Source: Pseudomonas aeruginosa (GTDB lineage Bacteria > Pseudomonadota > Gammaproteobacteria > Pseudomonadales > Pseudomonadaceae). Taken from it: 32,000 nucleotides of DNA. Where the stretch lies: positions 1,740,001 through 1,772,000 of the forward strand of contig NZ_LN831024.1 in the NCBI RefSeq assembly GCF_001457615.1. Reading direction: 5' to 3'. The translations under genes were made by a program, and so were the position numbers. The notes beneath the pieces were generated by a model. That model ran no database searches. It was not told where the DNA came from and saw nothing but the letters and a program-made list of their open reading frames with translations. The stretch's first letter is position 1. Each line of letters begins with the position of its first letter. Shown here piece after piece: positions 23,404 through 24,009 of this stretch.

Positions 23404-24009
23404 ATGAAAACCGATGACAAGGACCGCGAAGGCGGCGACTCCCACGGCGCCATCGGCGCCAAGCTGATGGAGTACGCGCTCAAGGTCAGGAAGGTGTTCG
23501 TCACCGGCGGGGTCGACGAGAAGATGGCCAAGGACGTCGTCCAGCAGCTGCACATCCTCGCCTCGATCAGCGACGATCCGATCTACATGTTCGTCAATTC
23601 CCCGGGTGGCCACGTCGAATCCGGCGACATGATCTTCGACGCGATCCGCTTCATCACACCGAAGGTCATCATGATCGGTTCCGGCAGCGTTGCCAGCGCC
23701 GGCGCGCTGATCTATGCCGCGGCGGACAAGGAAAACCGCTATTCGCTGCCCAATACCCGCTTCCTCCTGCACCAGCCGTCGGGCGGCATACAGGGGCCGG
23801 CCAGCAATATCGAGATCTACCGCCGCGAGATCGTGCGGATGAAGGAACGCCTCGACCGGATCTTCGCCGAAGCCACCGGGCAGACGCCGGAAAAGATCAG
23901 CGCCGACACCGAGCGCGACTTCTGGCTGAACGCGGAGGAGGCCGTGCAGTACGGCCTGGTCAACAAGATCATCGTTTCGGAACGGGAGATCACGCTGCCT
24001 GGCCAGTGA
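23404..24009 (+). CDS. clpP2: ClpP-family serine protease paralogue ClpP2 (201 aa)
   Basis: ClpP catalytic motifs are GSVASAGALI (Ser), LLHQPSGG (His) and DTERDFWLNAEEAVQYGLV (Asp). AGGAGG lies 5 nt upstream of ATG 23404; the ORF-track start at 23284 is rejected. The N-terminus (MKTDDKDREGGDSHGAIGAKL...) lacks the canonical ClpP axial-loop sequence. Matches recalled PA3326. Confidence 0.95.
   Translation: MKTDDKDREGGDSHGAIGAKLMEYALKVRKVFVTGGVDEKMAKDVVQQLHILASISDDPIYMFVNSPGGHVESGDMIFDAIRFITPKVIMIGSGSVASAGALIYAAADKENRYSLPNTRFLLHQPSGGIQGPASNIEIYRREIVRMKERLDRIFAEATGQTPEKISADTERDFWLNAEEAVQYGLVNKIIVSEREITLPGQ

Follow-up and report, generated by a model that had tools for sequence, protein, structure and literature searches.

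We analyzed a 32,000-nucleotide stretch of the Pseudomonas aeruginosa chromosome (NZ_LN831024.1, positions 1,740,001 to 1,772,000; referred to here as the window and numbered from its first letter), in which a second gene for the peptidase ClpP, clpP2, lies at the head of the azetidomonamide (aze) biosynthetic cluster. The open reading frame (ORF) at 23404-24009 on the plus strand starts with ATG and encodes a ClpP of 201 amino acids (aa). Its product matched the Pfam family CLP_protease (PF00574) with an E value of 2.6e-65 over residues 19 to 192, and alignment to Escherichia coli ClpP (a comparator sequence 100% identical to PDB entry 3MT6) placed the catalytic triad Ser98/His123/Asp172 in register. 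With a full-length domain and the triad, the protein is a member of the ClpP peptidases (PF00574/MEROPS S14). It scored above the cutoff of NCBIfam subfamily NF009205, its best NCBIfam match (265.6 bits versus 228), and below the cutoff of the canonical ClpP equivalog TIGR00493 (167.3 bits versus 308.6). In the alignment to E. coli ClpP, the ~25 N-terminal residues (MKTDDKDREGGDSHGAIGAKLMEYAL) had no counterpart of the canonical hairpin (ALVPMVIEQTSRGERS), and no N-terminal hairpin of the ALVPMVIEQT type (pore gate and unfoldase contact) was found in ClpP2. The protein is an atypical isoform of the type represented by P. aeruginosa ClpP2 (PaClpP2) and Listeria monocytogenes ClpP1 (LmClpP1), set apart from the canonical housekeeping ClpP. 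An original prediction, made from the sequence of the window alone, had described a second ClpP with an intact Ser/His/Asp triad and a noncanonical N terminus; both features were borne out by the alignment.

Over all 201 residues, the window protein was 100% identical to PaClpP2 in PDB entries 7M1L and 9NDJ (chain P). The window thus corresponds to the stretch from PA3326 (clpP2) to PA3336 in P. aeruginosa, and the ORF is certainly the already well-studied clpP2/azeA of this species, azeA/clpP2 being the name under which the gene is listed in PMC9040856. The next PDB matches were the Listeria ClpP1 entries (E = 3e-62), with canonical ClpPs at ~1e-43. The housekeeping copy, clpP1 (PA1801), the existence of which is documented in PMC13056064, is sited outside the window.

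The aze cluster and the intergenic region shared with clpP2

clpP2 and azeB, which encodes a nonribosomal peptide synthetase (NRPS), are divergent and 481 bp apart; azeC through azeJ and a gene of the major facilitator superfamily (MFS) lie beyond azeB (Table 1). The divergent pairing of clpP2 with the NRPS operon that had been predicted was thus found. The azeB ORF can be extended to a GTG at 22994, and the ATG at 22922 is favored by homologs. A dehydratase role has been reported for AzeD (bioRxiv 10.64898/2026.07.17.738954).

The intergenic region holds a 20-nucleotide (nt) direct repeat, the two copies of which are 85% identical, spaced by 33 nt, and of lux type. The prediction that clpP2 and the operon share candidate quorum-sensing boxes agrees with these two repeats and with the published RhlR dependence of PA3326-PA3334, genes that belong to the core RhlR regulon according to RNA sequencing (PMC9040856); in E. 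coli, a 470-bp fragment with the azeB promoter is likewise activated by RhlR (PMC12096825). The minimal CT-N12-AG motif was not enriched across the window (91 matches versus 93 expected), so that the candidate boxes rest on the repeat structure and on the published RhlR dependence. Three more matches to this motif occur in the intergenic region (window 23071-23258), at 23071, 23165, and 23243, the one at 23165 (CTTACAAATCTGTTAG) being the most palindromic of these (12/16 positions).

With the sigma-70 consensus, no promoter was detected in the azeB/clpP2 intergenic region, and sites resembling terminators were no more frequent than expected by chance. Neither an Rfam search of the whole window nor a sensitive scan of positions 22900-24400 returned a match above threshold, and subthreshold matches to mir-483 and ctRNA were rejected as chance. 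The spacer 3' of clpP2 contains hairpins at 24146-24163 and 24293-24328 and matches no Rfam family; direct repeats of the CTTTTCTT type are found in it at 24078-24095 and 24112-24129. G+C content at third codon positions (GC3) was genome-like for clpP2 (0.886) and for the genes of the aze cluster (0.875 to 0.925), and base composition was accordingly rejected as a clue to the order of acquisition.

Table 1. Features of the clpP2-aze locus (window coordinates; GC, G+C fraction; SAM, S-adenosylmethionine; FAD, flavin adenine dinucleotide)
Feature	Position	Strand	Basis or remark
MFS efflux transporter, tail of aze cluster	7412..8578	-	Profile matches, homologs
azeJ, azetidine-2-carboxylate (AZE) synthase (SAM dependent)	8670..9422	-	Function from PMC11794875
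azeI, acyl carrier protein	9540..9779	-	Pfam of orthologs
azeH, FabH-type ketosynthase III	9793..10785	-	Pfam of orthologs
azeG, SnoaL/PhzA-B-like protein	10789..11214	-	Pfam families of orthologs
azeF, cytochrome P450	11211..12467	-	Profile matches, homologs
azeE, short-chain dehydrogenase	12460..13374	-	Profile matches, homologs
azeD, standalone condensation-family protein	13376..14701	-	Profile matches, homologs
azeC, FAD-dependent (Baeyer-Villiger-type) monooxygenase	14701..15867	-	Profile matches, comparison with homologs
azeB, bimodular NRPS (C-A-PCP-C-A-PCP-TE)	15864..22922	-	Domain lists of orthologs
Divergent azeB/clpP2 intergenic region, 481 bp	22923..23403		GC ~0.55-0.57 versus ~0.70 in flanks
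lux-type box 1 TAGCTGTTAATTCTTGCAGG, azeB proximal	23098..23117		Direct repeat; CT-N12-AG core 23101-23116
lux-type box 2 TAACTGTTAATTCTGGTAGG, clpP2 proximal	23131..23150		Direct repeat; CT-N12-AG core 23134-23149
Shine-Dalgarno AGGAGG, 4 nt 5' of clpP2 ATG	23394..23399	+	Read from sequence
clpP2 (PA3326, azeA), atypical ClpP paralog	23404..24009	+	ORF, profile matches, PDB identity, triad by alignment
AT-rich spacer 3' of clpP2, ~340 bp	24010..24348		GC ~0.51; ~47 bp in P. paraeruginosa
16-kb block (MFS gene through azeB and most of intergenic region) missing from P. paraeruginosa	7403..23385		blastn versus L001; clpP2 and both flanks kept

ClpP genes inside and outside biosynthetic clusters

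Among 64 loci with relatives, found in a scan of one genome per species, azeB, azeC, and azeD lay beside the ClpP2 gene only in Pseudomonas sp. ABY48 and Pseudomonas palleroniana, in the same divergent arrangement and with 81% (ClpP2) and 82 to 83% (AzeC) identity to P. aeruginosa. In fluorescens-group Pseudomonas, clpP2 stands divergently at the cluster head, and clpP2 and the cluster travel together. The order in Pseudomonas sp. B21-048 is cluster, clpP2, phage-type integrase, and tRNA-Gly, and the 97.8% identity between B21-048 and ABY48 stops ~100 bp past clpP2; clpP2 is therefore the terminal gene of a mobile block. A second clpP2 is found ~80 kb away in B21-048, within a 1,196-bp duplicate of 97.6% identity (L066 9429-10624 versus L065 9429-10624) that comprises a 5' stub of azeB, the intergenic region, and clpP2, with a DDE transposase gene ~5 kb downstream. 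B21-048 therefore holds two ClpP2 genes with the same promoter region.

AzeC homologs of 73 to 79% identity were found in Serratia fonticola, in the actinomycete Saccharothrix sp. 6-C, and in unassigned sequencing-run or metagenome contigs. The azeB-to-azeJ clusters were collinear in Saccharothrix (L073), S. fonticola (L074), a metagenome contig (L075), and an enterobacterium-like contig (L076), and the MFS transporter and the set of nine Aze proteins were 49 to 84% identical to their P. aeruginosa counterparts. A ClpP gene was present in 4/5 distinct aze-like contexts examined outside P. aeruginosa, namely, the fluorescens group, S. fonticola, L076, and Saccharothrix. It lies at the tail, beyond the MFS gene, in S. 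fonticola and L076, and in Saccharothrix it is internal to the operon, with azeJ on one side and the MFS gene on the other; no ClpP gene was found within the 21 kb read of L075, where a transposase fragment precedes the cluster and a phosphopantetheinyl transferase gene comes after it. The in-cluster ClpPs were 43 to 50% identical to PaClpP2 and 40% identical to each other. The nearest solved relative of the Saccharothrix protein was Mycobacterium tuberculosis (Mtb) ClpP1, and those of the Serratia protein were Listeria ClpP1 and then PaClpP2; in all three in-cluster ClpPs (Serratia, L076, and Saccharothrix), the triad is kept and the canonical N terminus is missing. Since ClpP, normally conservative, is the outlier in otherwise orthologous clusters, and at three different positions, the best account of the pattern is that a ClpP gene was captured or replaced more than once, and this argues for selection on the linkage between ClpP and the cluster.

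The Saccharothrix cluster (L073 2847-20154) is collinear with window 7412-22922 and contains one extra acyl-CoA dehydrogenase gene. Its proteins are 49 to 80% identical to those of P. aeruginosa, as close as those of Serratia, and for this reason a fairly recent transfer of the aze cluster between phyla is implied.

A ClpP2-type gene, the product of which is 74 to 78% identical to PaClpP2, also closes an unrelated polyketide synthase (PKS)/NRPS cluster in Caldimonas brevitalea DSM 7029 (L067 1-10606), and the same cluster type was found in the metagenome-derived contigs L068 and L069 (1-10594). This cluster, apparently of the trans-acyltransferase (trans-AT) type, encodes an NRPS-PKS protein of >3,600 aa and a 1,650-aa protein (domains cMT, ACP, ACP, KS, ACP, and TE), followed by the MFS gene and then the ClpP gene. 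No AzeJ homolog was found in it within the 20 kb read, and a literature search returned no paper linking Caldimonas DSM 7029 to ClpP. The Caldimonas-type cluster may be a second ClpP-directed natural-product family.

In P. paraeruginosa ATCC 9027, a ClpP2 of 88% identity is encoded at the equivalent position of the chromosome, flanked on both sides by the genes found there in P. aeruginosa, and the aze cluster is missing (Table 1). The region from 23386 on, including the ribosome-binding site, is conserved there, and a lux-type box (CTGCCAATTCTGGTAG; L001 9805-9820) stands 5' of clpP2, with the 12-mer AATTCTGGTAGG common to box 2 of the window. Global alignment of the clpP2 upstream regions of P. 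aeruginosa and P. paraeruginosa showed no convincing homology beyond the ribosome-binding site and the one box. The leader between box and ribosome-binding site is GC rich (0.72) in P. paraeruginosa (L001 9774-10000) and AT rich in P. aeruginosa (23150-23385), and the leaders of both species are unalignable although the flanking genes are 88 to 93% identical; the clpP2 leader has been replaced, not merely truncated, between the two species. The locus is absent from the main text of the P. paraeruginosa comparative-genomics paper.

Cluster-free ClpP2s of 80% identity were found in Pseudomonas fluorescens ISL-62 and Pseudomonas spelaei, where the neighbors are an alpha/beta-hydrolase gene, the gene for a sigma-54 activator, and a cluster of flavin-dependent oxidoreductase genes (FMN reductase, luciferase-like monooxygenase, and acyl-CoA dehydrogenase). 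In Pantoea/Erwinia (L008 and L010-L015, ~8436-11284), a ClpP2-type gene lies between the flagellar cap gene fliD and a pair made up of the gene for a small regulator of the ArsR family and an AHSA1-domain gene, and this stable, nonbiosynthetic context in the Erwiniaceae may point to an ancestral role of ClpP2-type ClpP. The ClpP2-type gene of the Chloroflexota adjoins enolase, and that of the Halomonadaceae lies outside biosynthetic clusters. The original prediction had named a distribution of clpP2 independent of the cluster as evidence against its interpretation, and such a distribution was found in part: clpP2 or its relatives stand without the cluster in the PA7 clade (P. paraeruginosa), ISL-62, P. 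spelaei, Pantoea/Erwinia, the Halomonadaceae, and the Chloroflexota, yet gene and cluster are paired in the fluorescens group.

The cluster product and the role of ClpP2

Azetidomonamide A is a warhead-bearing, 7-membered bicyclocarbamate, and azetidomonamide B (azabicyclene) is a ring-contracted product (bioRxiv 10.64898/2026.07.17.738954; PMC13386464). The suggestion that the isolated alkaloids are shunt forms of a reactive compound holds for azetidomonamide B and does not hold for azetidomonamide A, which bears the warhead itself. AzeB-G suffice for the production of azetidomonamide A in vitro (bioRxiv 10.64898/2026.07.17.738954), and ClpP2 is therefore not biosynthetic. Metaze B, from a clpP-containing, aze-like soil-metagenome cluster (MTA), inhibits Mtb ClpP1P2 with a half-maximal inhibitory concentration of 1.35 uM (PMC13386464), and the same source states that the 7-membered bicyclocarbamate warhead of clipibicyclene inactivates ClpP. 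The clipibicyclene work had been described accurately in the original prediction; the link of clpP2 to an aze cluster with clipibicyclene-like products is already stated in PMC13056064, and the idea that clpP2 might serve self-protection is likewise a published hypothesis.

In the heterocomplex ClpP1(7)ClpP2(7), a ClpP2 ring stacks on a ClpP1 ring, and solely in this complex is the ClpP2 triad active (PMC12451819). ClpX docks on the ClpP1 ring only, the ClpP2 clefts being occupied by the protein's own C terminus; ClpP2 binds neither ClpX nor ClpA, its residues 1 to 13 are disordered, and residues 14 to 20 form helices that plug the ClpP2 axial portal (PMC12451819). In vivo, ClpP2 gives no boost to wild-type ClpXP1 activity and may lower it (PMC13056064). 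Because there is no unfoldase docking, the portal is closed, and ClpXP1 is not enhanced, ClpP2 would by itself add no capacity for unfolding or for degradation of misfolded proteins, which tells against the proposal, also made in the original prediction, that ClpP2 clears proteins with misincorporated AZE made by AzeJ. AZE is known to be misincorporated via prolyl-tRNA synthetase (PMC11794875), and every ClpP-bearing aze-like cluster examined also encodes AzeJ, the two associations being inseparable in these data. However, ClpP2 is conserved without AzeJ in the PA7 clade, P. fluorescens ISL-62, and P. spelaei; ClpP2-type genes end the Caldimonas-type PKS/NRPS cluster, in which no AzeJ homolog was found in the 20 kb read; and the link between bicyclocarbamates and ClpP that is established for relatives (PMC13386464) is the simpler explanation. 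With little support from the docking and portal data, and with purifying selection on ClpP2 where the AZE synthase is missing, such buffering of AZE proteotoxicity is very improbable.

It is probable that clpP2 is functionally coupled, via the Clp peptidase, to what the aze cluster makes. The best single reading, which we hold tentatively and with a little less than even confidence, is self-protection, with clpP2 as a target paralog at the head of the azetidomonamide cluster. When the cluster is on, the active sites of ClpP1 would be acylated; the ClpP2 ring, with different substrate-pocket residues, would supply less sensitive catalytic sites, and ClpX-ClpP1P2 would thereby keep degrading substrates in the producer. 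The protective property would belong to the whole ClpP2/LmClpP1-type clade and would not be a cluster-specific adaptation, which would explain the persistence of clpP2 without the cluster. We favor self-protection as the only reading that accounts for the separate ClpPs that unrelated lineages retain in their clusters. It is consistent with the co-regulation suggested by two lux-type boxes in the shared region, by the RhlR regulon, and by the stationary-phase shift to ClpP1P2 (PMC13056064); with the apparently recurrent, nonorthologous capture of ClpP in aze-like clusters; with the likely co-mobility of cluster and clpP2 in B21-048 and the predicted ClpP2-type gene in a second cluster type; by analogy, with the warhead chemistry of the relatives clipibicyclene and metaze B; with the identity and architecture of ClpP2 (PMC12451819); and with the finding that ClpP2 is not needed for biosynthesis. 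The predicted role of ClpP2 as a self-resistance copy is thus partly supported by the comparative data, which link ClpP to the cluster, and weakened by the cluster-independent occurrence of clpP2.

Several points weigh against self-protection. clpP1 is dispensable for growth of P. aeruginosa, and protection would thus not be a matter of viability. The ClpP2 triad is intact and active, and insensitivity to an acylating warhead is not to be assumed; in PMC13056064 itself, inhibition and ClpP2-mediated resistance are both described as undemonstrated. The aze-like cluster of L075 (2925-18590; AzeC, 79%) is complete and has no ClpP gene within the 21 kb examined. In the PA7 clade, clpP2 was without the cluster in 24/24 contigs read and is under purifying selection (ratio of nonsynonymous to synonymous substitution rates [dN/dS], 0.195 versus 0.159 for the neighbor PA3325). 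Most ClpP2-type genes at an identity of at least 63% occur in ordinary, nonbiosynthetic contexts, and no active-site-proximal residue separates cluster-linked from cluster-free Pseudomonas ClpP2, the positions that differ being confined to the disordered N- and C-terminal tails and residues 181-182. Cluster-linked and cluster-free Pseudomonas ClpP2s were also interleaved in a neighbor-joining tree. From the cluster-free occurrences, the purifying selection, the interleaved tree, and the lack of diagnostic residues, it follows that ClpP2 is older and more widely spread than the aze cluster and has a cluster-independent function.

Some of these observations speak for linkage without a shared mechanism, in which ClpP2 would be an old, general-purpose Clp ring with a quorum-sensing role of its own and the aze cluster would be merely adjacent or inserted, with a shared bidirectional promoter. 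The ClpP2 clade occurs widely away from biosynthetic clusters (Pantoea/Erwinia, ISL-62, P. spelaei, and Chloroflexota), the cluster-free PA7-clade gene is still selected at the same site, ClpP2 has no cluster-specific substitutions, and the genome-like GC3 of clpP2 and the cluster genes gives no sign of recent import. We nevertheless judge this explanation unlikely: strains of the fluorescens group have the same divergent clpP2-azeB arrangement on a mobile island, nonorthologous ClpPs are found in the Serratia, L076, and Saccharothrix clusters, and related bicyclocarbamates are proven ClpP inhibitors (PMC13386464), so that chance adjacency to the target family of the compound class, in several lineages, is improbable.

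Published physiology suggests a further relationship between ClpP2 and the metabolite. ClpP2 appears under quorum-sensing control; in late stationary phase, all detectable ClpP1 of PAO1 is in ClpP1P2 complexes, which are only singly capped and less active; ClpXP degrades RhlI; and ClpP1P2 controls microcolony and biofilm morphology (all from PMC13056064). The same paper proposes that the alkaloids and the two ClpP paralogs "work together" in fine-tuning proteolysis, and azetidomonamide A, not B, promotes biofilm and pigment production according to work cited in bioRxiv 10.64898/2026.07.17.738954. ClpP2 and azetidomonamide A could be co-operating attenuators, two quorum-sensing outputs that both lower ClpXP activity: ClpP2 would convert doubly cappable ClpP1(14) to singly capped ClpP1P2, the metabolite would acylate Clp active sites, and substrates such as RhlI would be stabilized, locking in the high-density program (biofilm and pigments). 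Although P. paraeruginosa is without the cluster, it retains a clpP2 preceded by a lux-type box, which indicates that ClpP2 has a quorum-sensing role independent of the metabolite. This joint attenuation is possible but doubtful, since it leaves unexplained the nonorthologous ClpPs that the Serratia and Saccharothrix clusters have of their own, a pattern typical of a need tied to the compound; moreover, it presupposes that ClpP of the producing cell is itself reached and inhibited by the metabolite, and the cluster also encodes an MFS exporter. In a broader scheme, which we regard as conceivable and speculative, PaClpP2/LmClpP1-type rings would constitute a portable, inhibitor-tolerant catalytic ring captured by unrelated clusters, the cluster of Caldimonas and of the related metagenome-derived contig would encode a new and chemically different ClpP-directed product, and in P. 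aeruginosa the clpP2-aze divergon would act as a quorum-sensing switch for both remodeling and chemical attenuation of ClpXP, with feedback on the stability of RhlI.

The observation that clpP2 heads the aze cluster is confirmed and its interpretation partly supported, and both were already known. No new object is described; the comparative-genomic constraints added are modest and consist of the PA7-clade indel that leaves clpP2 behind, the nonorthology of the in-cluster ClpPs, the mobile island ending in clpP2, and the Caldimonas lead. ClpP is validated as a target for antibacterial and antivirulence agents, and the metabolite that P. aeruginosa makes under the control of quorum sensing is probably ClpP reactive. 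An answer as to whether ClpP2 is a shield, as in self-protection, or a partner of that metabolite would explain why two ClpP rings are kept and would help in designing inhibitors selective for ClpP1 or for ClpP2. The field has already recognized the question, and reagents exist in the form of the in vitro reconstitution of azetidomonamide A and the ClpP1P2 structures.

Comparison with known ClpP systems

PaClpP2 of PAO1 (PA3326, azeA; PDB 7M1L and 9NDJ chain P) is the same gene at the same locus with the same divergent partner, azeB, and no difference was found. The closest solved relative outside Pseudomonas is L. monocytogenes ClpP1 (PDB 4JCQ, 4JCR, and 6SFX chain A; E = 3e-62). Listeria ClpP1, too, is an additional isoform that acts together with the housekeeping ClpP in a heterocomplex, and it is not known to be linked to a biosynthetic cluster.

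The clipibicyclene cluster of Streptomyces cattleya, reportedly treated by Culp et al. in 2022, is said to hold an extra ClpP in a cluster with a bimodular NRPS and a flavin monooxygenase. Like clpP2, the actinobacterial cluster ClpPs (of clipibicyclene, of MTA [gene mtaL; PMC13386464], and of Saccharothrix) are extra ClpPs that accompany such a cluster, and the bicyclocarbamate product of those actinobacterial clusters inhibits ClpP (clipibicyclene and metaze B). The Saccharothrix in-cluster ClpP differs from clpP2 in that it belongs to another lineage (43% identity to PaClpP2; nearest solved relative, Mtb ClpP1) and lies inside the operon, not divergently at its head. ClpP is essential in actinomycetes, and the need for protection is clearer there. 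The ClpP(ADEP) of the Streptomyces hawaiiensis acyldepsipeptide cluster is likewise a cluster-encoded extra ClpP and a resistance factor, as cited in PMC13056064; it differs from the case of clpP2 in that the cluster is of another type and the compound is an activator in the unfoldase-docking pocket, not an active-site acylator.

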